Below the pieces are notes generated by a model. That model made no database searches and was not told the origin of the DNA. It was given only the letters and a program-made list of their open reading frames with translations. From Cetorhinus maximus (taxonomy: Eukaryota), in assembly GCF_964194155.1 (NCBI RefSeq), contig NC_135916.1:1364001-1428000 (forward strand): a stretch of 64,000 bases of DNA, written 5' to 3'. A program made the translations under genes and the position numbers. This document shows, in pieces, positions 24,094-56,844 of this stretch (its first letter is position 1; every line of letters begins with the position of its first letter).

Positions 24094-24519
24094 ATTCCAG
24101 ACAAAAAATAACAATTCTCTGCAGGCTATGTGATTCTGGGGTTAAGCCTACCCATCATTATCTGGTATTTAAATGTAGCTTTCATTCACTGACACTCTTT
24201 GGTCAATAATATTGTGTTTTTCTCACTAAATTGAAAACACCGAAATATGTTTCTGTTTTTGTTTTTATCTCTGCAACATTCAGTTTTAAGTCAGTGTGGA
24301 TTTTACCTGGTGCATGAAAATCCCTGGACATTATTTTATATTTCAGTCGACATATGTTGCTGCTAATATCAGAGTATGTTTCTATTGTCATTTTATTCCC
24401 CACGTTATCTGTTAAATCATTCTATGGGTGCATGGAATACTTGTTTCTTCATGATATATAAATGTGAACTTTAATCTGTAATGGCTATTATTCCAAACAA
24501 AATTAGGGAAAAACAATGA

Positions 24520-25442
24520 ATGACAGACCGATTGTCTATTATGTCATAACAGGACACTTAGACAATATCAACGAAATTGGACAAAGACTGCATGCAGTTG
24601 TGAAAGGAAATCATCTTGGACAATCCTATTGGAACTTTTTTGGAGAGGTAACTAGCAAAATAGACAAGGGAGAATCAAATGATATGGTGTATTTGGATTT
24701 TCAGAAAGCTGTTGATAAAGGCCCACAAAAGAGGTTTGTGTACTACATTGAAGTGCATTGGATGGGGGTAATATATGGGCATGGATTGAGAAAAGATTAG
24801 CAAACAGGAAACAGAGAGCAGGAATAAGTCAGTCTTTTTGAGAATGGCAGGAGGTGACAAGTGATGTAGAAAAGATATCAGTGCCTGGGCCCCAGTATTC
24901 AAAATATTCCACAATTATTTTGATGAAGGAACCAAAGGTAATATTTCGAAGATTGCTGATGACACAAAGCTAGGAGGGAATGTGAGAGATGAGGAGGAAA
25001 TTAAGAGTGTTCATGGAGATTGAGAGAAGATGAGAGAGTGGACAGAAACAGGGCAGACGCTGTATAACGTGGATAGATGTGAATTTACCCACGTTGGCAG
25101 GTAAAAAACAATGGCAGAGTTTATTTAAGTAGTGATAGGTTGGGTAATTTTGATATATGAGGGTACCTCCGTGCAGCAAATGATGACCAGGCTGATTCTT
25201 GGGCTGGCAGGGTTGTTGCATGAGGAGAGATTGAAAAGTTTTGGTCTGTATTCACTCAAATTTTGTAGAATGAAAGGGAGATGTAGTTGAAATACTGACA
25301 GGGCTGTACAGACCTGGTGCAGGGATGATGTTTCCTCTGAGTGGGAAGTCTAGAACAAGTGTTCATAATCTCTGGATAGGGGGTAGGCCATTTAGGACTG
25401 TGATGAGCAGAAACATCTTCACTCGGAGGGTGGTGAACATGT
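24520..25442 (+). mobile_element. decayed CR1 RT fragment (paralogue of 5370-6357)
   Basis: VYLDFQKA and IADDTK motifs. Confidence 0.88.
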
Positions 25443-26239
25443 GATCAAGCTGCATTCATTTTGTTACCTCGAGTATCTTGTATTATATGTGAATGAATAT
25501 ATTTTCCCCTCTGTGTATCAATGAGTATCTGTGATATTTGCATGAGTTGGATTAACTCTATATCTAATATATTACGCTATCCACAAAAGTGGGATTTCAT
25601 TTGAATGTCTCAACATCTGGAATTAGATGTGAAGTTCAAGTTGTTATTCATATAGTCAATCAGTTTCTGTGATTCTGAATGTGACTGTGACTCAGTACTT
25701 GTCAGGTTCTGGTAAGTGATTGCTAGTGTTAGCCTGCCGACTTGATTAATGCATTGAAGAAATAGTTTTCACAAACATGCAAGGGATAAAAGTTAGGTAA
25801 AGACAAAACCTACACATGTACAATAATGGATTCATATACACAGAGCACAAATTTGAGATACACAATCAGTACAATAATTGAGATTTATGGAATTAATTCC
25901 AACACAGCTGACGGTCAGGAGGTAGACAATTAAATTTGATGTAAATAAATTCCAAAACTACATTCTGTATCAGAGAAAGACAAATGGGAAATTAGCCCTG
26001 CACACTCCCACACAAACACTCAAACACCCGGATAATCATGCACTAACACACACAGACACACACGCAAAGCATGTGTGGCTGTTTTCTCAGAGACATTGCC
26101 CTGACTGTCACTCAGGCTGTTTCGCCCCGCCTCTCACTCTCTCTCTATCTCTCTCTCCCTTTCTCAGTCAGGTCGGGGCGGGCTGTATAAAAGCGGAACG
26201 TGAAGCAGCTCCCAACTCATTCAGCAGCGATTTGACTGA

Positions 26240-27569: not shown

Positions 27570-28284
27570 TATTCTGCACTTGCTGTTTTCTGCAATGGAA
27601 TAGTGACTTTAGCTCTGAACCTCTCCGTCACTGCAATTCATTTATGCATTTTATTCTATAGCTGTCAGGGCCTGGAAGTGACTGTGAGGTGGACTTTGCT
27701 TCTGCTGCCATCAGTTTTTGACAAGCTGCAAAAATGTCAGCTTCATTCCATGTGTATCAGTCTCTGGTGCTACACACGAAAGGTGTTACCCTTCAGCATC
27801 TGTCAGTTTGTGGTACTGTGTATGACTGCAGGATTAATACTCTAAATGTCATTTTTGTCAACCTTTCGTTGAAGAATTCATTTCGATTCACAATTTTCCT
27901 TTTAGGATTGTGAAATTGTGTATTTCATTATGTCCTGTCGCTATCCGTGTACTGGGATCGAGTTAATTTTGCACTAAGCAGTACTCTTGTATTATAGGTG
28001 GATTTAATTGTAGCTCTGTGTATCGCCAAGTATCTCTTATGGATTAAGAGATTAATTCTATGCCCTGGTGCAATCAGTGAGAGTGAATTCCATCTGAATC
28101 TGTCAATATCTGGAAATAAATGTGTGGTTCAAAGAGATACTGATTGATTCAACAACTTTGAGTGAGAGTTGTTTTGTGTTCGTCAATCTGTGGCATGTTA
28201 TGTGACTGTGGGTTTCCTCTGTGTCTTTTTGACTGTTTTTCCTTTTTTTGTCGTGTGTCTGTGTGCTTGTTTGTGTTTGTGCGT

Positions 28285-28318
<34 letters not shown>

Positions 28319-31300
28319 TTGTGTGTGCGCGTGTTTGTGTGTGTGTGCCTCGACCTCTGCATTTAATTTTCTGCTACTCTGTTTGTGATTGGATTAATGC
28401 TTTGTTGGTCCTGGGTGTGCCTGTGTTTAAGTTTTTGTTTGCGTGTGTTTGTGTATGTATGCACAAAATCTTGTGCGCATGAGTGTTTATGTATGTGTGT
28501 GAGTTTGCTTTGCATGTGTGTCTGTGTGTGTTAGTGCATGAGTCTGCGAATGTGTGAGTGTTTTTGTGGGAGTGTGCAGGGCTCATTTCCCATTTGTCTT
28601 CGTCCGGTACAGGATGTAGTTTTGGAATTAATTTACATGAAATTTCAGTGTCAACCCTGTGACCGTCAGCTGTGGTGGAATTAATTCCCTCTATCTCAGT
28701 TATTGTACTGATTGTGTATCTCAAATTTGTGCTCTGTGTAGATGACTCCATTATTGTATATCTGTAGGTTTCTTCTGTACTTAATATGTATCCCATGCAT
28801 GTGTGTGAAAACTATTTCTTCAATGCGTTAATCTATTACTGTTTCCCGGCTCTGTTGCAGATTTAGACATGAAACTTTGCATTTATCAAAGACAGGTTTT
28901 ATTCATTTGTTTTGTTTGAACTAAGGTATAGCATTCAGGCTGCAACTTGGCAAAAGTCTTTGTGAATGATAATGAGACGCTTGAACTCACATGCTGTGTA
29001 CCTCATATCTGATTGGTTCAGTTTGTAACGAACTTACGTTATGAATCATAGTGAACATATTGACCTGCAACGTGTTGTTTATCCTTGCTGTATTAATTAA
29101 AATTACTCTTTCTTCTTATTTCAGATATAGCATGAGATCGTTAGAGGGGAATTTAACGTCTTCCACTGTGGGAACCCAGGGTACATTCTTAGTTTTAATT
29201 TTGTACATTTCATTTAGTTGCTCTACCTGTAGCTAAAACTGCACTCTCCTGAAATAAATGAGCTGCCTTTTAACCTGATAATGTTTGTGATTTTGGACTG
29301 GGATTGATGGACCTACCATTCTGCCGTGCTCAGTGGATGTGAATTGGGGAGAAATATTCTGTCTCCCCTGTTGTATTTGACTGTTGCATTGAACACGTCT
29401 ATCTGAAACTTGAGATCAATGTGAATCTGATTCCTGCTCTCAGTGATGGTGGAACTGCTGTTCTGTCTGTGCTCTTTGAACAATAATGTGCCTATGGCCA
29501 TTCGAAGCAGAGGGCTGCATGATTATTTTAGCTGGGGAATCAGTAACTTGGCGCTGGTGCACAAGGGGAGATGGTGGCCCAATGTTATATCATTATCAGA
29601 TTGCAGGCGAGTGTGTGTCTGTGTGTATATATTTACCTGCCGGTCTTTACTATGGGAGAAATTTATTTATTCTGCACTGGTTATATTACGCTATGTGAAT
29701 GTGGGAACACACTGGATCTTTCACTTTTTAACTATGGGATTTATTCATTTCCTGCCTGTGAATTGGGGTTTTAAAATGCACCTAGTTATTCGCTGCTGTG
29801 TGAATGTGTGTTTTAATTTATAAATGTTTGTAATTGATTCTGGGCTTTACTCTGTATCTTTTACTGTCTGTAATGCACATGTGGCTATTTCTCAGCACCT
29901 GCCTGTGACTGAATTGTGAGTATGTTTCTTACTTTCACTGTTTCTGACATGTAATGCATATTTTACTCATTGCCTTTCCGTCACTGGTATGTGGATTTGC
30001 AGATTTTATTCTGTATCTGTAATTCTGTGATATGTCAGTGTGATTTATTATCCTGTTGTTTGTGTCAGGGTCAGAAATGTGAGCATGGAGAAGTTATGCA
30101 GAAACTCTTAGGTTATATTAAATGAATGAGAATTTAATCATTTGCTGTCAATCCCTGGTATGAGAAGTTGCGGTTCCCTCTATGCCCATCATATTCTTGT
30201 GTGTGAGTATTGACTTTTCTCTAGGTCTGTATGCACCTTGTAGGTCATTGTTGATTTTGCTGTGAACATGTCAGTCTGTATTACATGAGTGTAATGTTCA
30301 CATTGCAGCTTTCAATATAGTTTGTGGGCATGGACCTCCCCCCACCCTAACAGCCCCCACACCACCCCCGACTGTATCTCTTAGTCTTTGGTACGGGCTG
30401 TTATGTTTTAATTAGCAACTTACACATTTTGATGCATTTTCACGTGTAATTTTACTGTAGTTATCAACATCTGATCTCTCTGTTCCCAATCTCTTCTTAT
30501 TTTCAAAAGTCGGTTATGGAAAAATTGATTTTATTCTGCACCTCTCCATCTCTGGTATGTGTCTGTGGTTTTATAATGTTGGTGTCTGCCCCTGTTACGA
30601 GAATCCAGCTTTCTTCTGTATCTGTCAGTCCCCCCTATGAGAGTGGTGTTATGTTATTGACTGTACTTGTCAATATCGGCTTTATGAGTGCGGCAGCGCC
30701 CCGAAGCCGAATTTCACATTGGGAACACATCAATGATCCTCCGGATTTATCTCTTTTAATCGTTAGCAGCGGCCTCCTTCTGTGCAGGGATTAGTTCCCT
30801 GATTTGCATGGACAGGATGGTCAATAAACATCCAGTGCAACAGGCAGTTATCAAACTATGGTCAACTGCTTGTAAGGCAGGTATGTTAATCCCTGTCAGA
30901 CCATCAGACTCTATCCTACGCTACACCATCTGCATGTAGGAACACATCACACTGCAAAGTTTTGAATTTGATATTGTCATTTCCCCGTTACATCATCCAA
31001 TTTCAAGTGCTTCTGCTGCGTACGTATGTTGTTGCAGGGCTCATCTTCTGTCAGGAGGTGGCAGCAGTGCACTATAACTTGGATCTGGCCCTTTCTGATC
31101 AAACATCTAGAAAACAATAGCCCTGATGCTGCTCCTGAACCTGGCCAAGCTCACCTGGTTAAAAAGACTACGACAGCGGCCAAATACTTCCGCTCCATAC
31201 AGATCGACACAAGGTGTTTTGTTCTGCACTTGATGGTTTTTGCAATGCAATATTCACCCTAACTACATCTCGGTCACTGGGATTCACTGATGTGTTTTAT

Positions 31301-32335
31301 GCCATACCTGTTGTTTTCAAGCAAGGGACAGAGATATTGCTCTGTAATTGACGGTCTTTGAGTCTCATTTCACTGCAGGTGTTGACTGTTGCTGTGTGAG
31401 TGCACTTTTTGTTCAATACTTGTCAGGTTTTTTCACATTAGAGACAGTGTCTTTTTCGTTACCTACCAGTTTTTTGATATTGAGTGTTAGTTCTATACAG
31501 CTGTGTGCTTATTCAGGTACGTGAATTAGATTCCCCACCAACAGCTCCCCACCCACCCCCAAACCCCGCCCCACCTGTATCTATAGGTCTCCGGCGTGTG
31601 TAAAAATGACTTTGCCACGATCTCTGTCAGTTCCTGGTAAATGTGTGCCCGTGTTAGACTGCCCCTGTGAATTTCTGGTGTGTGAGCATTGATTTTATTA
31701 CGTAGCAGTTCGTTGCTTGGAAGTGATTGGCGCTTTTCTTTTCTCTCCCCCTCTATTCGTCAGTGTGTAGCATGAGAATGTGAGTTTTTATTCTGCATCT
31801 GTCAATAACTGACATGTGAGTGTGGGTCTCTCTTGACATTTGTCAATGTTTGGAATGTGTGTGGTGTGTGAATGTGAATATTACATTGGGTTTTTCAGTG
31901 TCAAATCGGTCATCGTGTGTTTGAGTCTAACTCTCAGTTTCTGACATTTAAATGTGAACATACCTTAAAATTATCAGTTCTTTAGTATGTCAACTACATT
32001 CTGTACCTAATAATATATTTTAAGCCAATCTAAGATTTACTCATTCTCTCAGTAATGTTATGTGGTTATGTAATCTCTGTTATGACTGAATGGACTTTTC
32101 TCTCTATCTGTCAATTTTCAATGTATGAAAGTGCCAGTTGATCAGTCCACATCAGTTTCGGTCATCGATGTATTGCTTCATTCTGTACCTATCCAATTTT
32201 GCATGAAAGTTTTTTTATTAACCACTTCTCACATGATTGTCTTCGATTTAACCTGTATCTGTGAGTCTCTGGTATGTAATTGTGGGTTTAATTTGTACCT
32301 GATGCTTTCAAGTTTGTGTGTGCGGTATTCATTCC
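27570..32335. repeat. decayed 41-bp tandem array with interruptions
   Basis: Four consecutive gap-free 41-bp units start at 30132, 30173, 30214 and 30255. Confidence 0.75.
28252..28348. repeat. (TG)n microsatellite
   Basis: Long TG run. Confidence 0.9.
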
Positions 32336-32359
32336 AACAGCAGAATAGATATGGAAGTA

Positions 32360-33880
32360 ATTCCATGGGATACCACAGGGATCAGTGTTTAGGCCTCAAC
32401 TATCCACAATCTATAACAATAATTTGCATGAGGAAACCAGAAGTATTGTTTCCAAGTTTGCTGACGACATGAAACTTGGTGGGAATGTGAGTGGTGGGGA
32501 GGGTGTCAAGTGGATTCAAGGCCATTTAGACAAGTTGATTGAGTGGGCAAATATATGGCAGATGCTTTAAAACATCGATTATGAACATAAGAACTGAAGA
32601 AATAGGAACAGGAGTGGGCCAATTGGCCCCTGGAGCCTGCCTCATCATTCAATAAGATCATGGCTGATTTCTTTGTGTTTCAATCCCCACATTATCATCT
32701 ACCCCCATAACCTTTGATTCCCTTGCCTATTAAAAATCTATCTAACTCTGCCTTAAAAGTTCTCAATGACCCTGCCTCCACTACCTTCTGAGGCAGAGAT
32801 TTCCAAAGTCACACAGCCCTCTGAGAGAGAAAAAAATATCCTCACCCATGTCCAAAAAAGGGCGATATCTAATTTAGAAACAGTGCCCCCTATTACTGGA
32901 AACATCCTCTTGGTATCCACAATTTCAAGGCCATTCAGGATCTTGTATACATCAATCAATCACCCCTCACTCTTCTAAGACCCAGTGGAAACAAGCACAG
33001 TCTGTCCAACCTTTTCTTATAAGACATCCCACTCATTCTAGGTAACTATCTAGTAAAGCTTCTCTGAACCACCTCCAATTAGTGTGAAGTTATCCACATC
33101 AGTTGAAAAGACAGCATGGGAGAGTATTATTTACATGGTGATAGACTGGGAAAGGTTGAAGTAAAAAGGGAGCTGGGTACCCATGCACACCAATCACTGA
33201 GAGCAAGCATGCAGGTGCAGGTAGCACTTAAGAAGGCAAATTAAATGTTGGCCTTCATCTTGACATGGTTGATTGCAGGAGCAATGATGTCTAACTGCAG
33301 CTATACAGGGCCTTAGCAAGACCACTCCTGGAGTATTGTGTGCAGCTTTGGTCTCCTTGCCTAAGGAAGGATATATTTATCATAAGAGGAGTGCGGCGAA
33401 GATTCACCAGAGTGATTCCGGAGATGGCAGGATTGTCCTCTGAGGAGAGTTTGGGTCGAGTAGGCCTGTTTTCACTGGAGTTTAAAAGGATGAGAGGGGG
33501 TCTCAATGAAAGGTGTAACATTCTGACAGGGCTGGACAGATTGGGTGCAGGGATGATGATTCCTCTGGCTGGGGCTCTAGAACAAGGGGTCACAATCTCA
33601 GGATACGGGGTAGATGGTTTAGAACTGAGATGAGGAGAAACTTCTTCAATCAGAGGGTGGTAAACCTGTGCAATTCTCTATGATAGAAGAGTGTGAAAGC
33701 CAAGTCACTGAATATATTTAAGAGCAAAATAGATAGATTTCAAGACTCCAAAGGGACAAGGCTATGATAACAGTGTGGTTGGATGTTGTTGAGATATAGG
33801 GCAGCCATGATTAAATTGAATGGCAGAGCTGGCTCAACAGGGCAAATGACCTACTCCTGCCCCTATTTTCTCTCTTTCCA
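32360..33880 (+). mobile_element. decayed CR1 with a nested antisense CR1 3' end (about 32585-33080)
   Basis: SKFADDMKLGG and EYCVQLWSP motifs; minus-strand DVYKILNG in the insert. Confidence 0.88.
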
Positions 33881-33889
33881 TGCCTGATA

Positions 33890-35365
33890 TGTGATAATGG
33901 ATTTCAGCTGTACCAGTTAGTTCATGTTTGGGTTGTGTGTAATTTGTTCTGTATTCATATCTCTGACTTGCAAGTGGTATATTTTGCTCTGTTCCTGATC
34001 ATTTCTGATGAGCTGAACGGTGGTTCTGTTTAGAACCTGTTGATTTCTCCTATGTGAATGTGGGATTTCCTTTGTCCTTGTCAGTTTATGGCATGAAGGT
34101 TTAAATCTGCAGCTAATGCAAATTCCAAATACTGTGGATATTGGAAATCTCAAGAAGAAAAATTAAAAATGCTGGAAATACTGAGCAGCTCTGGCAAGAT
34201 TTGTGGAGACAGAAACAAAATTGCCATTTGTTTAAAAACTCCGACCTGATGAAGCGACATTGATCTGAAATGTTCAGTCTTGTTTTTTTCTCCACAGATG
34301 CTCCCAAACTCGTTGATTATTCCCCACATTTTCTTTGTTTGTCCCCGAATATGTTATTTCCAGCAAGTTCATCTGGCAGTTTCTAATGGTTAATTTTGTC
34401 TTTCATATTGACAGGTTGCAATAATTAAATGGAGATTTTGCTCTGTAACTTTCACTTGTTTCTTTTTGTGTATCTGTGTTTTCTGTACCTGCCAGTTTCG
34501 AGTATGTGAGGATTTATTTGTACTGCAAATTTTATATTGTGCCAAGTGGATGTGTATCCGTTAGGTTCTCTGAACTTACTGTGTTTTTAATGCTTTACCT
34601 GTCTGTGAATTAGGATTCTGCACTGTTCCCTGTTATTTGCTCGTGCGACTGTATTGTTCCCAACATACGTGTAATTGCTGCTGGCCTTTACTATGCATAT
34701 GTCAGTCTCTGTAATGTGAGTGTAGCTATTACTCTGCACTTGTTTGTGCCTGATTTGTGAGTATATGTTTGAGTATTTTTGCCTGAAACTTAAATGGAAT
34801 GCGTGTTTTACTATTAACTCTCATTTGCTGAGATGTGTGTATGTGGGTGGATCTAATCCTGTACCTGTACCTCTGTGATATATCAGCGTGACTGTATATC
34901 CCCCCCTATCATTTCAGGGTCACATATGTGAAAATGATTCTGTGTCCCTTAGTTTATTGTAAATGAGTGAGGATTTAATCATTTAATGTGTGTCCTCTGT
35001 ATGAGAATGTTTTTTGAATTGCATTTTCACTAATATCTCTCATTATCCAGTATAATTTATGCAATTTAGTTTCATGCCAGTCAGTTTCTAGTATTTGAGT
35101 GTGATTTCACTCGATATCTTTCTGTCTCTTGCATGCATGCCTTGGTGAAACTTATTTTCAACCTGTCACTGTCTGGTATGTTTTATACTTATATGTCAGC
35201 CATTTTTCAGTGAATGTGACTTTTATTTTGTGTGTTTTTAGTGCTTTTACTTTTATATATGTTTGTAAATTAGGTAACTGGAACAGAATCTTAACCTGCA
35301 GTCAATCAGTTGTGTGTCACTATCTTGTTACATTTGACTAAGTGTCTAAAGTTTACTGCACCTTC
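33890..35365. repeat. decayed 41-bp tandem array
   Basis: Units at 34686-34726 and 34727-34767 match the consensus. Confidence 0.7.
34125..34345. mobile_element. palindromic Penelope-derived element
   Basis: Inverted arms and a CTGATGA...GAAA core. Confidence 0.55.
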
Positions 35366-35377
35366 AGTAGAGAAAAT

Positions 35378-36982
35378 AACTGAGCAAACTATTGGGATTA
35401 AAGGGTGACAAGTCCCCAGGACCTGATGGGCTAAATCCCAGGGTCTTAACGGAAGTGGCAGCATAGATAGTGAATGCATTGGCTATAATATTACAAAATT
35501 CCCTGGATTCTGGAAAGGTTCCAGTGGTTTGGAAAGATGCTTATATAACGCCCTTATTCAAAAAGGGGGGGAGGGAGAAAGTAGTAAACTATAGACCAGT
35601 TAGTATAACGTCTGACATTGGGAAATTGTTGGAATCCATTATTGAGGAAGAAGTAATGGGGCATTTGGAAAGTCAAAATGCATCCATCAGAGTCAGCATG
35701 GTTTTATGAAGAGTAAATCGTGTTTGTCTAATTTGATAGATTTCTTTCAAGATGTGAGAAGCAAAGTGGGTAATGGGGATCCTGTAGATGTTGGATATCT
35801 GGACTTCCAGAAGGCCTTTGATAAGGTGCTGCACAAAAGATTAATACGCAAGGTAAGATTACACAAGGTTAGGGGTAATGTATTAGTTTGGATAGAGGAT
35901 TGGCTAACCAACAGAAAGCAGAGATTCGGGAAAAATGTGTATTTTTCTGGATGGCAATCTGTAACTAGTGGGGTTCCACAGGGTTTGGTCAATGATCCCC
36001 ATTTATTTACAATCTATATTAATGATTTGGATTCAGGGATAGAAGGTCCGATAGCTAAATTTGCAGATGACACCAAAATAGGTGGGAAAGTAAGTTGCAA
36101 TGAAGAAATAAGAAATTTACAAATGGATATGGACAGGTTAGCTGAATGGGCAGATGGAGTTTAACGTGGATAAGTGTGAGTTTATCCATTTCGGTTGGAA
36201 GAATAAAAAGGTGACTTATTATTTAAATTGAGAGAAACTGCAGAATGCTTCAGTACAGAGGGATCTGGATGACCTCACGCATGAATCGCTAAAAGCTAAT
36301 ATGCAGGTACAGCAAGTAATTAGGAAGGCAAATGGATTTTTGGCATTTATTGCTAAAGGAAACGAGTATAAAAATAGACAAGTATTGTTGCAACTGTCCA
36401 AGGCATTGGTGAGACCGCACCTGGAGTACTGTGCACAGTTTTGGTCCCCATACTTGAGGAAGGATGTAGTTGCATTGGAGGCAGTTCAGAGGAGGTTCAT
36501 TAGATTGATTCCAGAGATGTGGGGCTTGTCTTATGAGGAGAGATTGAGTAGTTTAGGCCTATACTCGCTCGAGTTTAGAAGGATGAGAGGAGATCTAATT
36601 GAGGTATATAAGATTCTAAAGGGAATCGACAAAATAGACGAGGAGTGGATGATTCCCCTTGAGGGGCACTCTAGAACGAGAGGCCATAGTTTTAGGCTAA
36701 TGGGTGGTAGGTTTAAATCAATGATGTGGAGGAATTACTTTTCTCAAAGGGTCATGAATCTGTGGAATTCACTACCTCAGAGTGCAATAGATGCCGGGAC
36801 GCTGATAAAATTAAAGGAGGAGATAGACAGATTTTTATTTAGTAACGGGTTGAAAGGTTCTGGGGAAAGGGCAGCAAATTGGCGTTGAGGCCAAAATGAG
36901 ATCAGCCATGATGGTAATGAATGGTGGGGTAGGCTCCAGGGGCTGAATTGCCAACTCCTGCTCCTAGTTCTTATGTTCTTGT
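35378..36982 (+). mobile_element. CR1 LINE ORF2 (RT) to 3' tail, frameshifted
   Basis: PLFKKG, NYRPVS, YLDFQKAFDKV, GVPQG, FADDTK, RPHLEYC, NLWNSLP; tail TTCTTATGTTCTT. Confidence 0.95.
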
Positions 36983-37124
36983 GTGCTACCAATGCATATG
37001 ATCCTGCTAATTTTCAGCTGTGTATGTTTAAAGTACTACCGCAATATCTGCTTCTTAACTATCAGGACAGCATTGAATTACTTAGATGCTGTCAAAGTTC
37101 CATGTATATACTCATAGATGCTTC

Positions 37125-39570
37125 TTGTGTGTTTGTGTGTATGTGTGTTTGTGTCTGTAGGTGTAAATGTTTGTGAATATCTGCGTGACTGTGTGTGTCG
37201 GAGAGAACGTGCATATTTGTTACTGTGTGCATGTATTTATGCATGTATGTGTTTGTGCTTCTGTGTGTGTGAGGGCCTGTGTGTAAGTTTGTGCGCATGT
37301 GTGTGATTTTTTTTGTGTGTGTGTGTTTGTGTATGTGTGCAACAGATGGTGTGCGCATTTGTGTTTATGTATGTTTGTCTGTGTGTGTTAGTGCATGAGC
37401 CTGCGAGTGTGTGAGTGTTTGTGTGGGAGTGTGCAGGGCTCATTTCCCATTTGTCTTTCTCCGGGACAGAATGCAGTTTTGGAATTAAATTTAATGAAAT
37501 TTAAGTGTACAAGCTGTGACCGTCAGTAATGGTGTAATTAATTCCCTATATCTCAGTTATTGTACAGTTTGTGTATCTCAAGTTCATGCTCTGTGTATAT
37601 GACTCACTTATTGTACATGTGATGGTTTCTTCTGTGCATAATATGTATCCCATGCATGTGTGTGAAAACTATTTCTTCAATGCGTTAATCTATTACTGTT
37701 TCCTGGCCCTGTTGCAGATTAAAACATGAAACTTTGCATTTACCAAAGAGAGGTTTTCTTCTTTTATTTACTGTGAACTAAGGTATAGCATTCAGGCTGC
37801 AACTCAGCAAAGTCTTTGTGAATGATAATGAGATGCTTGTACTTACATGTTGTGTATGTCATATCTGATTCATTCCATGTGTAGTGATCTTAAGTTATGA
37901 ATCATAGTGAGGATATTAAACCGGCATGTGTTGTGTATCCATGCCATATTAATTAAAATTACACTTTCTCTTTATTTTAGATATAGTATGAGATCTTTGG
38001 ACGGGGATTCAATGTGTTCCTCTGTGAAACCCAGGTACATTCTTCAGATTAATTTTGTACATTTCAGTCAGTTGCACTATCTGTAGCTAAGACTGCACTC
38101 TTCTGAAATGAATGAGCTGCCTTTCAATCTGATAGTGTTTGTGATTTTGGACTGAGATTGATGGACCTGCCATTCTGCGGTGCTCAGTGAGTGTGAATTG
38201 GGGAGAAATATTGTTCTGTTGTGCTCTTTGAACAATAACGTGCCTATATCCATTCGAAGCACGGGGCTGCATGATTATTTTAGATGGGGAATCAGTACCT
38301 TGGGGCTGGTGCACTACGGGAGATGTTGGCGCAATGTTATATCATTATGAGATTGCAGGTGAGTGTGTGTCTGTGCATGTGTGTGTGTGAGTACATTTAC
38401 CTTCTGGTCTTTACTGTGAGAGAGATTTATTTCTCCTGCACTATTTATATTACATTATGTGAATGTGGGATCGCACTGTACCTTTCACTTTTTAACATCT
38501 TAATTTGGGGTTTATTCATTCCCTGTCTGTGCATGGGGATTTCAAAATGCACCTAGTTATTTGCTGCTTTGTCATTGTGTGTTTTATAGTATAAATGTTA
38601 GTAATTGATTCTGGGCTTTACTCTGGATCATTGACTCTCTGTAATGCATTTGTGGCTATTACTCAGCACCTGCCTGTGCCTGATTTGTGAGTATGCATCT
38701 TACTTTCACTGTTTCTGACATGTAATGCATATTTTTACTCATTGCCTCTCAGTTACAGGTGTGTGGATTTGCAGATTTTATTCTATATCTGTAATTCTGT
38801 GATATGGCAGTGTGATTTATTTTCCTGTTGTTTGTGTCAGGATTAGAATTGTGAGCGTGGAAACATTTTGCTGAAACTCAGGTGATTTTAAATGAGTGAG
38901 AATTTAATCATTTGCTGTCAATCCCTGGTATGAGAAGGTATGGTTTAATCTATGCATATTGTATTATTGTATGTGAGTATTGTCTTTTCCCAGGGTCTGC
39001 ATGCACCTTGTAGATCATTGTCGATTTTGCTGTGAACATGTCAGCCTGTATTACTTGAGTGTGATGTTCACATTGCACCTTTCAATTTAGTGTGTGACCA
39101 ACAACCTCCCCCAACACTAACATCCGCTGCACCACACCCAGCTGTATCTCTTGGTCTTTGGTGCGGGCTTTTAAGTTTTACTCGGCAGCTTACGGATTTT
39201 GATGCATTTTCAGGAGTGATTTTACTGTAGCTATCAACATTTGATTTCTCGGTACCTATTCTCTACCTATTTTGAAAAGTCTGTCATGGAAAAATTGACT
39301 ATATTCAACACCTCTCTTTCTCTGGTATCTGTCTGTGGTTTTACAATGCAAGTGTCTGCCCCTGTTATGGAAATCTAGCTTTATTCTGTATCTGTCAGTC
39401 CCTCCTATGAGAGTGGTGTTATGTTATTCACTGTAATTGTCAATATCTGTTTTGTGAGTTAAGGTTTAAACTTTCTTGTTTGTAGAGATCTGTCAATATA
39501 ACTATTCTGAAAACACTGTTCTGGCATGTGATGTGTATGCGTGTCTGTATTAATGAATAAGTACTTTATC
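37125..39570. repeat. TG-rich microsatellite plus decayed 41-bp array (older duplicate of about 28.4-30.7 kb)
   Basis: Colinear similarity with the 28.4-30.7 kb block. Confidence 0.65.
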
Positions 39571-39577
39571 ATTACCA

Positions 39578-40160
39578 GGAGGAGGTGATGGCGTAGTTGT
39601 ATTGTCATTGGACTAGTAATCTGGAGACCCAGGGTAATGCTCTGGGTTCGAACCCTGACACTGCAGATGGTGGAACTTAAAATCAATAAAAATATGAATT
39701 GAATTAATGATCACCATGAAACCATTGTTGATTGAGGTAAAAACCCTTCTGGTTAACTAATATCCTCTAGAGAATGAAGTTTGTCGTCCATGTACATGTG
39801 ACTCTACACCCACACGTAAATGACCTAGCTAGCCACTCAGTTGAAACAAGCAGCTACAAAGAGATCATTGACAATGGCAATCTCAGCCCTGTCAACCCTG
39901 AGGGACAAGGGCAGCAGATCGATGAAAACACCAAAACCTGGAAGTTCTCCTCCAGGTGCCTCACCATTCTGACATGGAAATATGTTGTCATTGCTGGGTC
40001 AAAAACTAGGAACTCCCTTGCTCTCAGCACTGTGGGTGTATCAACACCACAGGGACTGCAGTGGCTCAAGAAAGCAGCTCACAAACCACCTTCTCAAGGG
40101 CAACTAAATGATGGCACAGCCAGCGAAGCAAACAACTCAAGAATGAATAAAATAAAAGTA
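39578..40160 (+). mobile_element. tRNA-derived SINE with LINE-like tail
   Basis: A-box TGGCGTAGTTG, B-box GGTTCGAACCC, ends GAATGAATAAAATAAA. Confidence 0.7.
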
Positions 40161-40561
40161 TGATTCTGTGTGAGATATTTGGTGTTGAATCTATTGTGCT
40201 GCTTCATGAATGCTGGGTACATTCAAGGATTAATTCAGTGAATTTCAATCAGCTTTATTACCTGATATTTAAATTGTAGCCAATGTTCCACTCTTGTGAC
40301 ATGCATGCAGTGAGCTTCAATCTGATATTGGTTGTGAGTTTGGACTGAAATTGGTGGACCTGCCATTCAGAGGTTCTAAGTAGGAGTGTATTGAGATTAT
40401 TCCAACCATCTCGCCACCTCCGCCCCCCTCTGAGTGTTTGACTATTGGATTGAGCATATGTATCTGGTATGACTTCAACTTGACTCTGACTATTTCTGTT
40501 CGTGGTGATGGTGGAAATGATGTTCTGTCTGTATCTGTGCACTCTGTGAATAATATCATAC

Positions 40562-41550
40562 CTGCTGTCAGTTAGAATGAGATGGCTGCACTTTTATTTT
40601 GGTTGGGAAATCAACAGCTTGAAAACGATCCCTTCATATATTTGCCTAGAGGAAGAAACATATCTCTTGTAAGTCAAGATCAGCTGAGGTTTTGAAAGAA
40701 AATAGATCAACGTAACCTGTCAACTGATAATCAATTTTTATAATGCTCGACAAATCATCAAGAACAATTATAAAGTACAGTCCCTGATTCCACTTCAGCA
40801 ATCTGCTTCGTTACTTTTCAAACAATTGAGAAACATTCAGAAACAATCCTGGCCTGTCCTCCTCCAAGGATGTCACTACCCGCGGGGACAGAGACATTGA
40901 TGCAGGTCAGTTTTCAATCTCCAGCTCCCACTGTAAGAGCCGTCAACTGAAACTAACAGCCGCTGCGACAATGTTTCTTTAACATTTATCACTTGAAATG
41001 CTGGTGCCTGCGATGGGTGATATTTAATTGATTCTTCCCCATCCTCACGGTGCGCCTGTTTCCATTGTTCACTGTCCAAATCCCGACAAGTTGCATGAAT
41101 CAGCAGCTATACTTGGAATATGCATTACAGGATTGAGGGGAGGATATCCCAATAGTTTTCAATTGCAGCTTGCTCAAGTTCTGTCTCCCTCAGCAGGGCC
41201 ACACACAGCCCCAGAAAGGCCTCTCCCCGTCCACCCGCTCACTCCAAGTTCCGGAACACGTTCCCGCTCCGCTCCGCCTCTTACAAACAGCCCCCGGTTC
41301 CCCCTGAACTTACCCCGAGTCAATGATGATTTCTGTGTCCACACTGACAAACCGGGGCCCTGCTGGAATCAGAACGCTGTTTACTCGCTTACCCGGGCCC
41401 TAAGATTTCCATTTCTATCTGTTTGAAACAAAGGTCTCCCGCTCACTGAGTGAAAAACTTCAAGGGCGGAGTCTGGGATAAGGGACGCGCATGCGCTCTT
41501 CTAGCCATGTCTGAGGAGCTGAATGAAAACAGGAATGCGCATGCGTTTTT
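40562..41550 (-). ncRNA. putative spliced non-coding transcript, copy 2
   Basis: NRF1 sites at 41487 and 41536; donors at 41392 and 41313; exon 40645-40562 (TAG acceptor, CAG|GTATGA donor). Confidence 0.4.
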
Positions 41551-43457: not shown

Positions 43458-44129
43458 ATGACCGATACTGCAGCCGCCGAAACGGCTCCTCCAGCCGCTC
43501 CCGCCGCCCAGGTCAAGACTCCCAAGAAGAAGAAGAAGGCGGCTCCCAGGAGCAGTGCAGCCGGTCCCAAGCTGGGCGAGCAGATCCTCAAGGTTGTGGC
43601 GGATTGCAGCGATCGCAAGGGGATGTCGCTGCCCGCGATCAAGAAGGCGCTGCGCGGCAATGGGGTGGATGTGGAGAAACTCGGCTCCCAGATCAAGCAA
43701 AGCATCAAGAGGAATGTGAAGAATGGCTTGCTGGTTCAGGTCAAGGGCACGGGCGCCTCGGGCTCCTTCAAAGTCCCTAAGAACACAACCCCAGGGAAAG
43801 TGGGAAAGAAGGCGAAGGCAGCAGTTGGCAAGAAATCTCCAGTGAAGAAAGCTGCAGCCAAGAAGGTGACAGCAAAGAAAGCAGCGGCCAAGAAAACTCC
43901 AGTCAAGAAAGCAGCGGCCAAGAAATCCCCGGCCAAGAAATCCCCGGCCAAGAAAGCAACGGCCAAGAAATCCCCAGCGAAGAAAACAGCGGCCAAGAAA
44001 ACAGCCAAGAAGGCGGCAACTCCCAAAAAGCCGGTGAAGAAAGCAGCCCCCAAGAAAAAGTCTCCGGCCAAGAAGTTGACGGGCGTCAAAAAAGTGGCGA
44101 TAGGGAGGGCCAAGCCCAAAGGGAGATAA
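43458..44129 (+). CDS. H1: linker histone H1
   Basis: 223 aa; paralogue of 14630-15286 with a 5-aa longer tail; AAACACA box upstream. Confidence 0.97.
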   Translation: MTDTAAAETAPPAAPAAQVKTPKKKKKAAPRSSAAGPKLGEQILKVVADCSDRKGMSLPAIKKALRGNGVDVEKLGSQIKQSIKRNVKNGLLVQVKGTGASGSFKVPKNTTPGKVGKKAKAAVGKKSPVKKAAAKKVTAKKAAAKKTPVKKAAAKKSPAKKSPAKKATAKKSPAKKTAAKKTAKKAATPKKPVKKAAPKKKSPAKKLTGVKKVAIGRAKPKGR

Positions 44130-46030: not shown

Positions 46031-46474
<444 letters not shown>

Positions 46475-46809: not shown

Positions 46810-47914
46810 ACAAATCGACCCGACTCTATAACAAAACCCAAAGGCTCTTCTAAGAGCCGCCCACAACCTCACATTGAGAGCAGTGACCTTCGAGCGGGAG
46901 AGGGAAAGCGAGATGTAGTTTTATATAAACACAGCGTTTCCATCTGCGCATTCTCCATTCACAAAACTATCGTGAGTCACACAAGGTTTCATGGTTTAAT
47001 TTAGTTCGGTTTTCAGGAATTCACTTCCTTTCTTCCTCTCGAAGCTCAACTCCAAGCTTAGCTGACAGCTCCCAAACTAACACCGAGTCCACAAGATAAA
47101 GGCCATCATTTATTATAATATGATCAGGAGGAGCTATTTTGAGACACAACATTCTCGCTTCTTCGCACTATTTTCACCCTGTCTTTTTTTCATTACAAAC
47201 TGAATCAAACAGATATGACATACATAACATGAGTTCCTGAGTCTCATTCACAAAGACTTTGGCGGAGTTGCAGACTGAAGGCTACACCTTAGTTCACACA
47301 AAACCAATGAATGAAACCTGTCTTTGATAAATGCAAAGTTTCATGTTTAAATGTGCATCAGAGCCGGGAAACAGTAATGGTTTAATTTCTTGCAGAAAAT
47401 CGCCGTTAAATTTAACCCAGTCAGTTCCAAACTATTAAAAGATAGGCCTCCCTTATTGTACTATATCATATTTAATTGCAAGTACCACACTCGCTTTTAA
47501 AATCAGGAATCCATTCGTGTTTAAACTCGGACCTTTTTACAGTCCTAACAGCCGGCGGAATTTCACGTTTACCGAATGCTGCGGTTAAGCAATATCGGCC
47601 TGAATGTACAAGTGTGATATTATTTTAAAAATAATAAAATTATATTATAATATTGTATCCAGATTGCAGGTTATTAATTCACTCCAATTTGAAGTGGTTC
47701 CGAATGAGTATTTATCTTGTTGCACGACTCGTGTTCGGTCTGCAGATGGAGCCAGGTCACAATAACTTGCACCTTATCGTTTCTGAACACACGTCGAGAA
47801 GCAACGGGCCTGATGCTGCTCTTGGAACTTGCCGAGCTCGCCTCCCGCCCCCCGTTAAAGAGGCAATGGTAGTGGCAAACTCACCGCCCTCCATACTGAT
47901 CGGAACAAGCTGTT

Positions 47915-50900
47915 ATATTCTGCACTTGCTGTTTTCTGCAATGGGATACTGACTTTAGCTCTGAACCTCTCCGTCACTGCAATTCATTTATGCATTTTAT
48001 TCTATAGCTGTCAGGGCCTGGAAGTGACTGTGAGGTGGACTTTGCTTCTGCTGCCATCAGCTTTTGACAAGCTGTAAAAATGTTAGATTCATTCCGTGTG
48101 TATCAGTCTCTGGTGCTACACACGAAAGGTGTTATCCTTCAGCATGTGTCAGTTTGTGGTACTGTGTATGACTGCAGGATTAATACTCTAAATGTCATTT
48201 TTGTCAACCTTGCGGTGTAGAATTCATTTCGTTTCACAATTTTTGTTTAGGAATGAGAAATTGTGTATTTCATTATGTCCTGTCGCTATCCGTGTACTGT
48301 GATCGAGCTAATTTTGCACTAAGCAGTAATCTTGTATTATAGGTGGATTTAATTGTACCTCCGTGTATCGCTAAGTATCTCTTATGTAGTCACGAGTGGG
48401 ATTAATTCTATGCCCTGGTGCAATCAGTGAGAGTGAATTGCATCTGAATCTGTCAATATCTGGAAATAAATGTGAGGTTCAAAGAGATACTGATTGATTC
48501 AACAACTTTGAGTGAGAGTTGTTTTGTGTTCGACAATCTGTGGCATGTTATGTGACTGTGGGTTTCCTGTGTCTTTTTGACTGTTTTNNNNNNNNNNNNN
48601 NNNNNNNNNNNNNNNNNNNNNNNNNNNNNNNNNNNNNNNNNNNNNNNNNNNNNNNNNNNNNNNNNNNNNNNNNNNNNNNNNNNNNNNNNNNNNNNNNNNN
48701 NNNNNNNNNNNNNNNNNNNNNNNNNNNNNNNNNNNNNNNNNNNNNNNNNNNNNNNTGTGTGGCTCTATCACTGCATTTAATTTTCTGCTACTCTGTTTGT
48801 GATTGGATTAATGCTTTGTTTGTCCTGGGTGTGCCTGTGTTTAAGTTTTTGTGTGCGTGTGTTTGTATATGTATGCAAGAAATCTTGTGCGCATGTGTGT
48901 TTATGTATGTGTGTGTGAGTTTGCTTTGCATGTGTATCTGTGTGTGTTAGAGCATGAGTCTGCGAGTGTGTGAGTGTTTGTGTGGGAGTGTGCAGGGCTC
49001 ATTTCCCATTTGTCTTCGTCCGGTACAGGATGTAGTTTTGGAATTAATTTACATGAAATTTAAGTGTCAATCCTGTGAACGTCACCTATGGTGGAATTAA
49101 TTCCCTATATCTCAGTGATTGTACCGATCGTGTATCTCAAATTTGTGCTCTGTGTATATTTTTCCTTTATTGTACATGTGTAGCTTTCTCCTGTACCTAA
49201 TATGTATCCCATGCGTGTGTGTGAAATCTATTTCTTCAATGCGTTAATCTATTACTGTTTCCCGGCTCTGTTGCAGATTTAGACATGAAACTTTGCATTT
49301 ATCAAAGACAGGTTTTACTCATTTGTTTTGTTTGAACTAAGGTATAGCATTCAGGCTGCAACTCGGCAAAAGCCTTTGTGAATGATAATGAGACCCTTGA
49401 AATAACATGCAGTGTATGTCATATCTGATTGGTTCAGTTTGTAACGATTTTACGTTATGAATCATAGTGAGCATATTGACCTGGAACGTGTTGTGTATTC
49501 ATGCTGTACTAATAAAAATTACACTTTCTCCTTATTTCAGATATGGCATGAGATATTTTGAGGGGAATTTAACGTGCCCCCAGACTCTTGGTCTTTGGAA
49601 GGGGCTGTTATGTTTTAATTATCAACTTACTTATTTTGATGCATTTTCACATGTGATTTTACTGTAGCTGTCAACATCTGATCTCTCTGTACCCAATCTC
49701 TTCCTATTTTCAAAAGTCGGTTATGGAAAAATTGATTTTATTCTGCACCACTCCATCTCTGGTATGTGTCTGTGGTTTTATAATGTGGGTGTCTGCCCCT
49801 GTTACGAGAATCCAGCTTTCTTCCGTATCTGTCAGTACCCCCTATGAGAGTGGTGATATGTTATTGACTGTACTTGTCAATATCGGCTTTATGATTCCAG
49901 CAGCGCCCCGAAGCCGAATTTTACATTGGGAACACATGAACGATCGTCCTGATTTATCTCTATTTAATCGTTAGCAGTGGCCTCCTTCTGTGCAGGGACT
50001 AGTTCTCTGATTTGCATGGACACTATGGTCAATAAGCATCCAGTGCAACAGGCAGTTATCAAACTATGGTCAACTGCTAGTAAGGCAGGTATGTTAATCC
50101 CTGTCTGACCATCAGACTCTATCCTAAGCTACACCATCTGCATGTAGGAACACATCACACTATAGAGATTTGAATTTGATTTTGTCACTTCCCTGTTACA
50201 TCAACTAATTTAAAGTGCTTCTGCTGCGTACGTATGTTGTTGCACGGCTCACCTTCTGTCAGGAGATGGCAGCAGTTCACTATAACTTGGATCTGGCCCT
50301 TTCTGATCAAACATCTAGAAAACAATAGGCCTGACGCTGCTCTTGAACCTGGCCAAGCTCACCTGGTTAAAAAGACTACGACAGGGGTCAAATACTTCCG
50401 CTCCATACAGATCGACACAATGTGTTTTGTCTGCACTTGATGGTTTTCGCAATGCAATATTCACCCTAACTGGGTACATCTCGGTCACTGGGATTCATGT
50501 ATGTGTTTTATTTCATACCTGTTGTTTTCAAGCAAGGAAGTGAGATATTGTTCTGTAATTGACGGTCTTTGAGTCTCATTTCACAGCACGTGTTTACTGT
50601 TGCTGTGTGAGTGCGCTTTTTATTCAATACTTGTCAGATATTTTGACATAAGAGACTGTGTCTTATTCGTTCCCTACCAGTTTTTTGACATTGAGTGTAA
50701 GTTCTATACAGCTGTGTGCTTATTCAGGTACGTGAATTAGATTGCCCACCAACAGCTCCCCACCCACCCCCAAACCCCGACCCACCTGTATCTATAGGTC
50801 TCCGGCGTGTGTAAAAATGACTTTGCCACGATCTCTGTCAGTTCCTGGTAAATGGGTGCCGGTGTGAGACTGCCCCTGTGAATTTCTGGTGTGTGAGCAT

Positions 50901-51545
50901 TGATTTTATTACATAGAATTTCGTTGCTTGGAAGTGATTGGCGCTTTTCTTTTCTCTCCCCCTCTATTCGTCAGTGTGTAGCATGAGAATGTGAGTTTTT
51001 ATTCTGCATCTGTCAATAACTGACATGTGAGTGTGGGTTTCTCTTGGCATTTGTCAATGTTTGGAATGTGTGTGGTGTGTGAAGGTGAATATTACATTGG
51101 GTTATTCAGTGTCAAATCGGTCATCGTGTGTTTGAGTCTACCTCTCAGTTTCTGACATTTAAATGTGAAAATACCTTAAAATTATCAGTTCTTTTGTATG
51201 TCAACTATATTCTGTACCTATTCATCTATTTTAGGCCAATCTAAGATTTACTCATTCTCTCAGTAATGTTATGTGGTTATGTAATCTCTGTTATGACTGA
51301 ATGGACTTTTCTCTCTATCTGTCAATTATTAATGTATGAAAGTGCCAGTTGATCAGTCCACATCAGTTTCGGTCATCGATGTATTGCTTCATTCTGTACC
51401 TATCCAATTTTGCATGAACGTTTTTTTTATTAACTACTTCTCACATGATAGTCTTCGATTTAAACTGTATCTGTGAGTCTCTGGTGTGTAATTCTGGGTT
51501 TAATTTGTACCTGATTATTTCAAGTTTGTGTGTACGGTATTCATT
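47915..51545. repeat. decayed 41-bp array (duplicate of 27.6-32.3 kb)
   Basis: Colinear with the first copy, with a deletion near 49577. Confidence 0.7.
48588..48755. other. assembly gap at a (TG)n microsatellite
   Basis: Run of N, positionally equivalent to 28240-28345. Confidence 0.98.
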
Positions 51546-51571
51546 CCAACAGAAGAATAGATATGAAAGTG

Positions 51572-53080
51572 ACTCCATGGGGTACCGCAGGGATCAGTGT
51601 TTCGGCCTCAGCTGTTCACAATATATTACCATAATTTGCATGAGGAAACCAGAAGTATTATTTCCAAGTTTGCTGACGACATGAAACTTGGTGGGGATGT
51701 GAGTGGTGGGGAGGGTGTCACGTGGATTCAAGGCCATTTAGACAAGTTGATTGAGTGGGCAAATATATGGCAGATGCTTTAAAACATCGATTATGAACAT
51801 AAGAACAGAAGAAATAGGAACAGGAGAAGGCCATTTGGCCCCTCGAGCCCGCCTCATCATTCAATAATATCATGGCTGATTTCTTTGTGTTTCAATCCCC
51901 ATATTATCATCTACCCCCATAACCTTTGATTCCCTTGCCTATTAAGAATCTATCTACCTCTGCCTTAAAAGATCTCAATGACCCTGCCTCCACTACGTTC
52001 TGAGGCAGAGATTTCCAAAGTCACACAGCCCTCTGAGAGAGAAAAAAATATCCTCACCCATGTCCAAAAAGGGCGATATCTAATTTAGAAACAGTGCCCC
52101 CTATTTCAGGAAACATCCTCTTGGTATCCGCAACTTCAAGGCCACTCAGGATCTTGTATACATCAATCAATCACCCCTCACTCTTCTGAGACCCAGTGGA
52201 AACAAGCACAGTCTGTCCAACCTTTTCTTATAAGACATCCCACTCATTCTAGGTAACTATCTAGTAAAGTTCCTCTGAACCACCTCCAAGTAGTGTGAAG
52301 TTATCCACATCAGTTGAAAAGACAGCATGGGAGAGTGTTATTTACATGGTGATAGACGGGAAATGTTGAAGTAAAAAGTGAGCTGGGTACCCATGCACAA
52401 CAATCACTGAGAGCAAGCATGCAGGTGCAGGTAGCACTTAAGAAGGCAAATGATATGTTGGCCTTCATCATGACATGGTTGATTGCAGGAGCAAGGATGT
52501 CTAACTGCAGCTATACAGGGCATTGGCAAGACCACTCCTGGAGTATTGTGTGCAGTTTTGGTCTCCTTACCTAAGGGAGGATATATTTATCATAAGAGGA
52601 GTGCAGCGAAGATTCACCAGAGTGATTCCGGAGATGGCAGGATTGTCCTCTGAGGAGAGTTTGGGTCAAGTAGGCCTGTTTTCACTGGAGTTTAAAAGGA
52701 TGAGAGGGTGTCTCAATGAAAGGTGTAACATTCTGACAGGGCTGGAATGATTGGGTGCAGGGATGATGTTTCCTCTGGCTGGGGGTCTAGAACAAGGGGT
52801 CACAATCTCAGGATGCAGGGTAGATGGTATAGAACTGAGATGAGGAGAAACTTCTTCAATCAGAGGGTGGTAAACCTGTGCAATTCTCTATGATAGAACA
52901 CTGTGAAAGCCAAGTCACGGAATATATTTAAGAGCGAAATGGATTGATTTCAAGACTCCAAAGGGACAAGGCTATGATAACAGTGTGGTTGGATGGTGTT
53001 GAGATATAGGGCAGCCATGATTAAATTGAATGGCAGAGCAGGCTCAAGAGGGCAAATGACCTACTCCTGCTCCTAATTTC
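51572..53080 (+). mobile_element. decayed CR1 with nested antisense CR1 (duplicate of 32360-33880)
   Basis: SKFADDMKLGG and RPLLEYCVQFWSPY motifs. Confidence 0.88.
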
Positions 53081-53334
53081 TCTCTTTCCATGCCTGATAT
53101 GTGATAATGGATTTCAGCTGTACCAGTTAGTTAATGTTTGGGATCTGTGTATTTTGTTCTGTATTCATATCTCTGATTTGCAAGTGATATATTTTGCTCT
53201 GTTCCAGTTAATTTCTGATGAACTGAACAGTGCTTCTGGTCAGAACCTGTTGATTTCTCCGATTTGAATATGGGATTTCCTTTGTCCTTGTCAGTTTATG
53301 GCATGAAGGTTTAAATCTGCAGCTAATGCAAATT

Positions 53335-53555
53335 CCAAATACGGTGGATATTGGAAATCTCAAGAAGAAAAATCAAACATGCTGGAAATACTGAGCAGAT
53401 CTGGCAACATTTGTGGAGACAGAAACAAAATTGCAATTTTTTTGAAAACTCCGACCTGATGAAGCGTCATTGACCTGAAATGTTCAGTCTTGTTTTTTTC
53501 TCCACAGATGCTCCCAAACTCGCTGATTATTCCCCACATTTTCTTTGTTTGTCCC
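53335..53555. mobile_element. palindromic Penelope-derived element
   Basis: Inverted arms and CTGATGAAGCGTCATTGACCTGAAA. Confidence 0.55.
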
Positions 53556-56703: not shown

Positions 56704-56844
56704 AACTACCAATGTATATAGTCCTGCTAATATTCAGCTGCGTATGTTTAAATTACTACCGTAATACCTGCTTCTTAACTACCAGACCAGCACTTAATTA
56801 CTTAGATGCTGTCAATGATCCATGTATATACTCACAGATGATTC

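Follow-up and report, generated by a model that had tools for sequence, protein, structure and literature searches.

In the newt Notophthalmus, the histone gene clusters are separated by satellite 1, a 222-bp repeat that is long, homogeneous and present in high copy number. In newt and Xenopus oocytes, transcription from histone promoters is reported to run on into satellite DNA (PMC11602149 and PMC5615363), and PMC2114352 also deals with read-through transcription of the newt histone-locus satellite. Here we describe a tandem array of 41-bp units that lies among the histone genes of the basking shark, Cetorhinus maximus, in a 64,000-nucleotide stretch of contig NC_135916.1 (RefSeq assembly GCF_964194155.1, positions 1,364,001 to 1,428,000, forward strand). 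This whole stretch is termed the window, and coordinates are counted from its first nucleotide. Like the newt satellite, the array is a tandem non-coding repeat adjoining histone genes. Unlike it, the shark array covers a few kb, has units of 41 bp that are decayed by at least about 35%, is of low copy number, is broken by insertions and was spread by duplication of gene units. Position is so far the one property of a newt-type histone-locus satellite seen in it.

The array also resembles variant-repeat minisatellites and old monomeric satellite layers such as monomeric alpha satellite, which consist of head-to-tail units with variable positions, lack a higher-order period and spread by segmental duplication; here the variable positions are columns 6, 13, 27, 35 and 40 of the unit. 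It differs from both in being far more decayed, with neighbouring units 49% identical, a period below the detection level of Tandem Repeats Finder (TRF), and unit turnover that has stopped. The likeness to long non-coding RNA (lncRNA) scaffolds such as the Xist repeats and Xenopus Xlsirt is limited to being tandem and non-coding, and unlike these the shark array shows no structure, covariation or constraint. Searches of the literature brought up no description of this repeat; Repbase, Dfam and supplementary repeat libraries fall outside that scope and could already hold the unit. The available portion of the basking shark genome note (PMC13044535) mentions neither satellite nor histone. We conclude that the array is real and very old, that it is apparently undescribed, and that it most likely lacks a present function. 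It is probably a variant minisatellite that froze, decayed unit by unit and was spread by duplication of the histone unit, and that is carried today as a passenger.

Detection and make-up of the array

The first-pass annotation of the window held that apparently unique, T/G-rich DNA at 27570-40560 resolves into decayed tandem units of 41 bp. Searches with a profile matrix, shuffled controls and nhmmer confirmed such an array, with corrections to the original description. A matrix trained on 29600-30310 only (about 700 bp, one tract) recovered 16 units with four spacings of 40-42 bp in 6400-9600, where 200 shuffles gave a mean of 1.5 units and no such spacing; in 31200-32330 it recovered 16 units (five spacings of 40-42 bp) against 0.5 in shuffles. 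When the full procedure was applied to the spacers between histone genes, 194 matches with 67 spacings of 40-42 bp were obtained, compared with 31-56 matches and 0-3 such spacings for 15 shuffled spacer sets. The iterated 41-column matrix matched 233 times on the plus strand and 26 times on the minus strand, and the spacings between its matches peaked at 41 bp (36) and 40 bp (28). With a profile hidden Markov model built for the dimer, all 118 nhmmer matches fell on the plus strand and the reversed window gave a single match. Units placed head to tail, with a single period and above chance, are what is expected of a satellite or minisatellite, here in decayed form.

The lag-41 autocorrelation peak that had been anticipated did not appear in whole spacers, where lag 41 lay outside the top 15 lags in every region, and autocorrelation is accordingly a weak test for this repeat. 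Relative to block dinucleotide shuffles, 27570-40560 gave z scores of 6.5 at lag 40, 2.8 at lag 41, 6.1 at lag 22 and 5.2 at lag 46, the lag-40 signal being mixed with a GT-driven even-lag signal, and no lag exceeded z 3.3 in 6400-10900. Within tracts chosen by the model, a partly circular comparison, lag 41 was the highest of the lags reported (z 5.6). TRF run at low stringency (score 30), likewise proposed as a check, returned 67 rows and no period of 40-42 bp. Because TRF no longer detects such arrays, apparently unique shark DNA can hide an old satellite.

The consensus drawn up by eye in the first-pass annotation is identical to the learned consensus at all 41 positions. Mean identity to this consensus is 65% among the 213 full units, in keeping with the suggestion of an old tandem repeat in which the period has stayed more visible than the sequence identity. 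Unit lengths are 41 bp (84 units), 40 bp (47), 43 bp (21), 39 bp (16), 42 bp (14) and others (31). Columns are unequally preserved, T3 (0.89) and T15 (0.84) being among the well-kept ones. Alignment of units without gaps holds at 30132/30173/30214/30255 and 34686/34727 (18, 23, 18 and 26 of 41 positions identical) and fails at 10469/10510, where 10 of 41 positions agree and an indel is needed. That the repeat is non-coding is borne out by its modal length of 41 bp, by the size of the longest ATG-initiated open reading frames (ORFs) overlapping the tracts (about 90-130 amino acids), and by the absence of zinc-finger linker motifs.

Contrary to the first-pass annotation, the array does not form the spacers and occupies only some 25-40% of each. 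Matches found by nhmmer cover 23-24% of each spacer; with borders set by hand, array tracts make up 41% of 27570-40560, high-copy elements 31%, GT-rich DNA 5% and other sequence 23%. The three spacers listed originally (6.4-10.9, 27.6-40.5 and 47.9-60.2 kb) do hold the array, and remnants at 24.1-25.7 kb had been overlooked (Table 1). These remnants mark a truncated fourth spacer; 4952-6576 matches 24091-25659 at 79%.

Histone genes, spacer duplications and insertions

The window is a replication-type histone cluster with five H4, two H3, three H2A and two H1 genes and a truncated H4. The nearest named H1 relatives are from Cetorhinus maximus and then Carcharodon carcharias, and an Rfam scan of the window returned nine histone stem-loops and no other family. 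Genes repeat in the approximate order H1, H4, H3, H2A (minus strand), spacer with array, conserved core, H1. The proposed tie between array and histone repeat holds within the window, where the array sits between H2A and H1. A piece of the same spacer is also placed between histone genes in a fused gene model of Carcharodon: a 26-residue stretch between the H2A-derived and H1-derived parts of this model matches 31161-31238 (81%, E 6.5e-8), and the spacer edge therefore occupies the equivalent position in the white shark. The model itself, recorded as an 'uncharacterized protein' of 874 amino acids, has the look of an artefact in which H4, H3, antisense H2A, spacer DNA and H1 were fused. Of the contig pieces listed for two organisms, B and C, three of eight from B (94-98% identity) and four of eight from C (about 87-90%) fall in array tracts.

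The spacers at 27.5-40 kb and 47.9-59.8 kb are paralogues that match at 83-94%, blocks internal to the spacers match at 81-86% and about 65%, and the 6.4-10.9 kb spacer matches at 60-74%. These similarities show the spacers to be duplicates of one ancestral H2A-H1 spacer. The first-pass annotation noted correctly that the array has one orientation in all spacers; this is expected if one spacer was segmentally duplicated and does not constitute independent evidence. Tracts have been deleted, interrupted and rearranged freely among the copies.

The view that the array is older than the elements inserted into it was upheld, in that the unit phase resumes across insertions of 1.5 kb and 250 bp. 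Breaks in phase fall at columns 8 and 15, and the phase is taken up again at columns 4 and 11, about four columns before each break, which is the pattern that a short target duplication would give. The oldest copy (6.4-10.9 kb) lacks the 1.5-kb long interspersed element (LINE) but shares the 250-bp element, which there has 47-nt inverted arms (9905-10071). The insertions had been named as CR1, short interspersed element (SINE) and long terminal repeat (LTR) elements; LINE reverse-transcriptase pieces (PF00078) are indeed present, and no LTR element was shown. We take the LINE fragments at 32345..33860 to be CR1, and the element at 39570..40150 is presumably a SINE. A Pfam scan that covered eight window ORFs and one further protein identified RVT_1 in two of the ORFs, a match below the cut-off in one and none in five.

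Summed depth in run X4 was 142-1343 in array bins, 562-690 in the core and 6e4-2.3e6 in the main transposon bins, so that at 80% likeness the array lies lower than the LINE and SINE bins by about three orders of magnitude. As this survey has no single-copy control, its depths indicate only low copy number at 80% likeness, and older dispersed relatives would be missed. A two-unit motif had no match in either metagenome or viral collections, a weak result given how little shark DNA they hold.

Several rearrangements were observed in and around the spacers. Spacer block 28506-29032 recurs in inverted form at 25744-27149, where an H4 gene together with its flanks (26078-26940) interrupts the copy; a piece related to it is found at 47190-47398. 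Immediately upstream of an H2A promoter, at 46750-46806, is the 3′ end of a truncated H4 with a stem-loop-like flank, and 46750-47791 matches 26501-27537 at 97%. At 17966-18600 an inverted copy of the region upstream of H1 abuts an orphan 3′ end of H1 that includes a histone stem-loop (18489-18534), the H1 coding sequence being absent. A gap of 168 bases in the assembly (48588-48755) corresponds in position to a long GT microsatellite of the paralogue (28253-28347). Every H2A has a spacer on the side where a divergent H2B would usually lie; no H2B ORF was seen in the 64 kb, in which no search aimed at H2B was made.

Table 1. Array tracts, insertions, core elements and selected histone genes of the window
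Feature	Position	Strand	Evidence and remarks
Array tract, decayed 41-bp units	27570..28240	+	nhmmer tract 27570-28124, best E 1.8e-8; 94.5% duplicate at 47878-48587
Array tract, holds units at 30132-30295	29612..30693	+	13 nhmmer matches, best E 2.3e-10; unit table
Array tract, left edge also in white shark	31210..32334	+	12 nhmmer matches; cross-validated; Carcharodon gene model matches 31161-31238; organism C contigs about 87-90%
Nested high-copy LINE fragments, both strands, inserted into array	32345..33860		tblastn with reverse-transcriptase and tail pieces; depth about 4-6e5 in run X4; unit phase resumes across
Array tract	33864..34114	+	Unit table; nhmmer
Short high-copy element, common to 6.4-10.9 kb copy (about 9855-10075)	34115..34365		Raised depth; two copies 33% diverged
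Array tract, holds units at 34686/34727	34370..35370	+	7 nhmmer matches, best E 7.6e-14
LINE 3′ fragment with reverse transcriptase	35375..36990	+	PF00078 E 3e-14; depth up to 2.3e6
Array tract	38360..39550	+	10 nhmmer matches; 85% to 29459-30689; organism C contig, 34 differences in 326
High-copy SINE-like element	39570..40150		Depth 2-5e5
Conserved non-coding core, promoter-like	41131..41460		Copies 12201-12500 and about 60846-61175; divergence below flanks
GCGCATGCGC palindrome	41487..41496		Only other window copies at 12534 and 61202
Oldest of the paralogous spacers; array of about 4.3 kb, weak in places	6368..10700	+	Matrix, nhmmer; 60-74% identity to pieces of other spacers
Truncated fourth spacer: array remnants 24125-24480 and 25514-25722 around LINE piece	24125..25722	+	nhmmer E 5.8e-4, 1.3e-6
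Third spacer	47912..59290	+	nhmmer; 83-94% duplicate of 27.5-40 kb
Third-spacer array tracts	47912-48560, 49716-49896, 50420-51546, 53074-53324, 53580-54956, 58180-59290	+	nhmmer
Histone H1 gene, right of spacer and core	43458..44129	+	Also 14630-15286; stem-loop RF00032
Histone H2A gene, 5′ side faces next spacer	46031..46423	-	Also 3841-4233 and 22302-22694

Decay, rates of change and age

Neighbouring units are scarcely more alike than random ones (49% identity over 133 adjacent pairs versus 47% for random de-duplicated units), and among 42 units of the oldest spacer the standard deviation (SD) of pairwise identity is 0.073, the same as for independent draws from the profile (0.073). The decay is therefore star-like. 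None of the 34 indels found between six duplicate pairs comprises a whole unit, the longest being 17 bp, which indicates that unit turnover has stopped. Together with the low depth, these values are not those of an active satellite homogenized by concerted evolution. No higher-order repeat was detected either, since eight variable columns showed no alternation over 78 adjacent pairs (lowest p 0.06) and the spread is star-like.

The same six pairs differ by about 1036 substitutions, or 0.033 indels per substitution, and it is this scarcity of indels, not selection, that lets the period survive. A neutral simulation with 0.6 substitutions per site gave 64% identity and 57% 41-mers, where 63-66% and 39-43% were observed. 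As the simulation retains more exact 41-mers than the array does, the period needs no maintenance, contrary to the notion that it is specially preserved.

Array tracts diverge about as fast as the insertions that they share in three duplicate pairs and more slowly in one short tract. Specifically, the differences are 5.0-7.8% versus 4.5-4.8% for the insertions in the 94% duplicate, 10.8% versus 8.3% in the 86% pair, 28% versus 33% in the oldest pair, and 3.7% (356 columns, one short tract) versus 7.0% in the 92% pair. When changes were polarized with an outgroup, 113 of 1568 consensus sites and 51 of 622 non-consensus sites had changed (base-stratified odds ratio (OR) 0.95, p 0.79), and 20 of the 51 changes at non-consensus sites were toward the consensus, with chance assumed to be about 38%. 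From such rate tests on the younger duplicates, the array most likely has no sequence-level function now.

We envisage a 41-bp minisatellite or satellite, variable at some positions, that underwent a single amplification in the H2A-H1 spacer of an ancestral shark histone repeat, where the initial tract may have comprised at least about 100 units. Homogenization would then have stopped and each unit decayed independently, as the star-like similarity indicates. LINEs and short elements subsequently inserted into the array, and the whole histone unit was duplicated several times to leave copies that are about 65-70%, 81-86% and 92-94% identical. Duplication of the whole unit would account for both the common orientation of the array and its linkage to histone genes.

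The synonymous divergence (dS) between whale and zebra shark is given as 0.061-0.111 over about 50 million years (My) in PMC13100897, from which we calculate 0.6-1.1e-9 substitutions per site and year per lineage. PMC10587355 gives a mutation rate of 7e-10 per generation for the epaulette shark; in PMC4422223 a shark rate is only assumed, and it was not used. The oldest spacer duplication, with about 0.19 substitutions per site per lineage, would date to 170-310 My, a rough estimate based on rates from another shark order. The array is older than this duplication, and thus probably more than 170 My old.

Several observations weigh against such a history of neutral decay. Our first test, made by majority rule without an outgroup, counted changes less often at consensus sites (93 of 1998) than at other sites (74 of 1011). 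We put this down to wrong polarity: changes on internal branches were miscounted, and the apparent selection was gone after outgroup polarization. Unassigned bases within tracts changed faster (35 of 252), perhaps through ascertainment. Column conservation has an SD of 0.145 for T and 0.122 for G, compared with about 0.06 in simulations that start from identical monomers, and this roughly twofold excess requires initial variant monomers, unmodelled context effects or earlier constraint. The simplest reading is that monomers already varied at the time of freezing, although constraint may have acted earlier. High-information columns were slightly less divergent in all five duplicate pairs compared (OR 1.1-2.4, p 0.06-0.59), none significantly so. 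The full 0.6 substitutions per site would, at published shark rates, imply an implausible 500-1000 My, and this again suggests variant monomers or locally faster rates. In addition, the rate tests cover younger duplications only and are blind to any function that depends on composition or length, and the array adjoins a conserved, promoter-like element.

The conserved core and alternative explanations

This 330-bp core diverges by 2% from its copy at about 60846, where the flanks diverge by 6-8%, and by 6% from 12201-12500, where the flanks diverge by 21-27%; in both comparisons it is three to four times more conserved than its surroundings. Its G+C content is 51-53%, its observed/expected CpG ratio is 0.67, and it adjoins the only three GCGCATGCGC palindromes of the window, which we take to be of NRF1 type. 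Two donor-like GGTAAG sites are found on its minus strand, and two of its three copies are placed upstream of H1 at a distance of about 2 kb. On the basis of sequence comparison, the core may be either a constrained promoter or enhancer, perhaps of H1, or a gene-conversion tract. A coding exon was rejected owing to stops in all six frames, and the 137-amino-acid ORF within the core had no homolog among 20 candidates of 75-240 amino acids. A structured RNA was rejected because there is no fold signal; Rfam over 40000-42500 gave one chance match (E 2.8) and nothing else. A 30-nt stretch inside the core (41341-41370, plus strand) contains motifs that resemble box C and box D, and its short ends are complementary, but as a small nucleolar RNA it is too short and without an Rfam match.

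One alternative is that the core serves as promoter and first exon for a non-coding transcription unit, a lncRNA or a precursor of PIWI-interacting RNA (piRNA), that extends leftwards across the array, or else that transcription enters the spacer in the rightward direction from the H2A promoter, to which no H2B is paired in this cluster. The array would in that event be a transcript body with loose sequence needs. The strong conservation of the core, its CpG richness, the neighbouring palindromes and the GGTAAG sites would suit a promoter and exon, and on its plus strand the array has GTGAGT 29 times versus 0 on the minus strand and AATAAA 4 times versus 42, as would favour elongation on the plus strand. 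However, these strand counts follow from the letters of the monomer, the promoter and motif clues point in opposite directions, the conservation of the core could reflect gene conversion or an H1 enhancer, and the array was without constraint in the outgroup test. We regard such a unit as unlikely. It is a little less likely still that each shark histone repeat carries an undescribed transcription unit in which a 330-bp NRF1-type promoter drives a body of satellite frozen since the Palaeozoic or early Mesozoic and yields a germline lncRNA or piRNA precursor. If that were true, the 41-bp unit would be among the oldest recognizable vertebrate satellites, traceable across sharks and rays.

Old satellites often originate from transposons, and the array might have arisen as a repeat inside an ancient transposable element, or might be one copy among many of an old satellite dispersed through the genome, with its place in the histone cluster an accident. 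Relatives of less than 80% identity would be invisible to the depth survey. No element ends or transposon ORF belong to the array, however, both array and core are low in copy number at 80% likeness, and the failure of the two-unit motif to match the metagenome and viral collections is a further, weak argument against dispersal. This explanation, which we consider somewhat unlikely, would alter the origin of the array and the claim of histone linkage and leave its neutrality as it is.

If the array acted at the histone locus as a chromatin element or a protein-binding site, comparable to the GA repeats of the Drosophila histone locus, it would serve in nucleosome phasing or as a zinc-finger landing pad; a unit of about four helical turns, histone linkage in two shark species and the far better preservation of some columns (T3 and T15) would be compatible with this. 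The phasing suggested in the first-pass annotation requires a periodicity of about 10 bp in AA/TT/TA, which is absent from the array (autocorrelation 0.000 at lag 10 and -0.002 at lags 20 and 31). Moreover, the period is kept no better than under neutrality, consensus sites have no excess conservation, and tracts change freely among copies, so that we find this role very improbable. The RNA repeat scaffold offered alongside it fared no better: the consensus fold was not significant (p 0.23), the 213 real units showed no folding excess (mean z -0.08 on the plus strand and -0.16 on the minus strand), and 98 de-duplicated units showed no covariation (589 paired cells versus 586 expected). These fold tests also speak against a per-unit hairpin suggested by eye. 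Finally, coding repeats can give star-like diversity with few indels, and the array could in principle be a dead coding repeat that lost its frame, for example half of an 84-bp zinc-finger unit. The modal length of 41 bp, the rarity of 42-bp units (14 of 213) and the lack of extra peaks at lags 84 and 123 make this barely credible. A zinc-finger origin was examined and rejected, with three loose C2H2 pattern matches and neither the linker nor the CxxCG[KR]xF motif in any of the six frames.

The frozen and decaying minisatellite that we favour reveals no new mechanism. The core is the more promising lead, as it may act as promoter for an unannotated RNA or as a regulatory element of the histone cluster. 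As a relic, the array is nevertheless a useful marker: slowly evolving shark genomes keep tandem arrays that are invisible to TRF, this one preserves several layers of the cluster's duplication history, and scans with its profile in sharks and rays could date the amplification.

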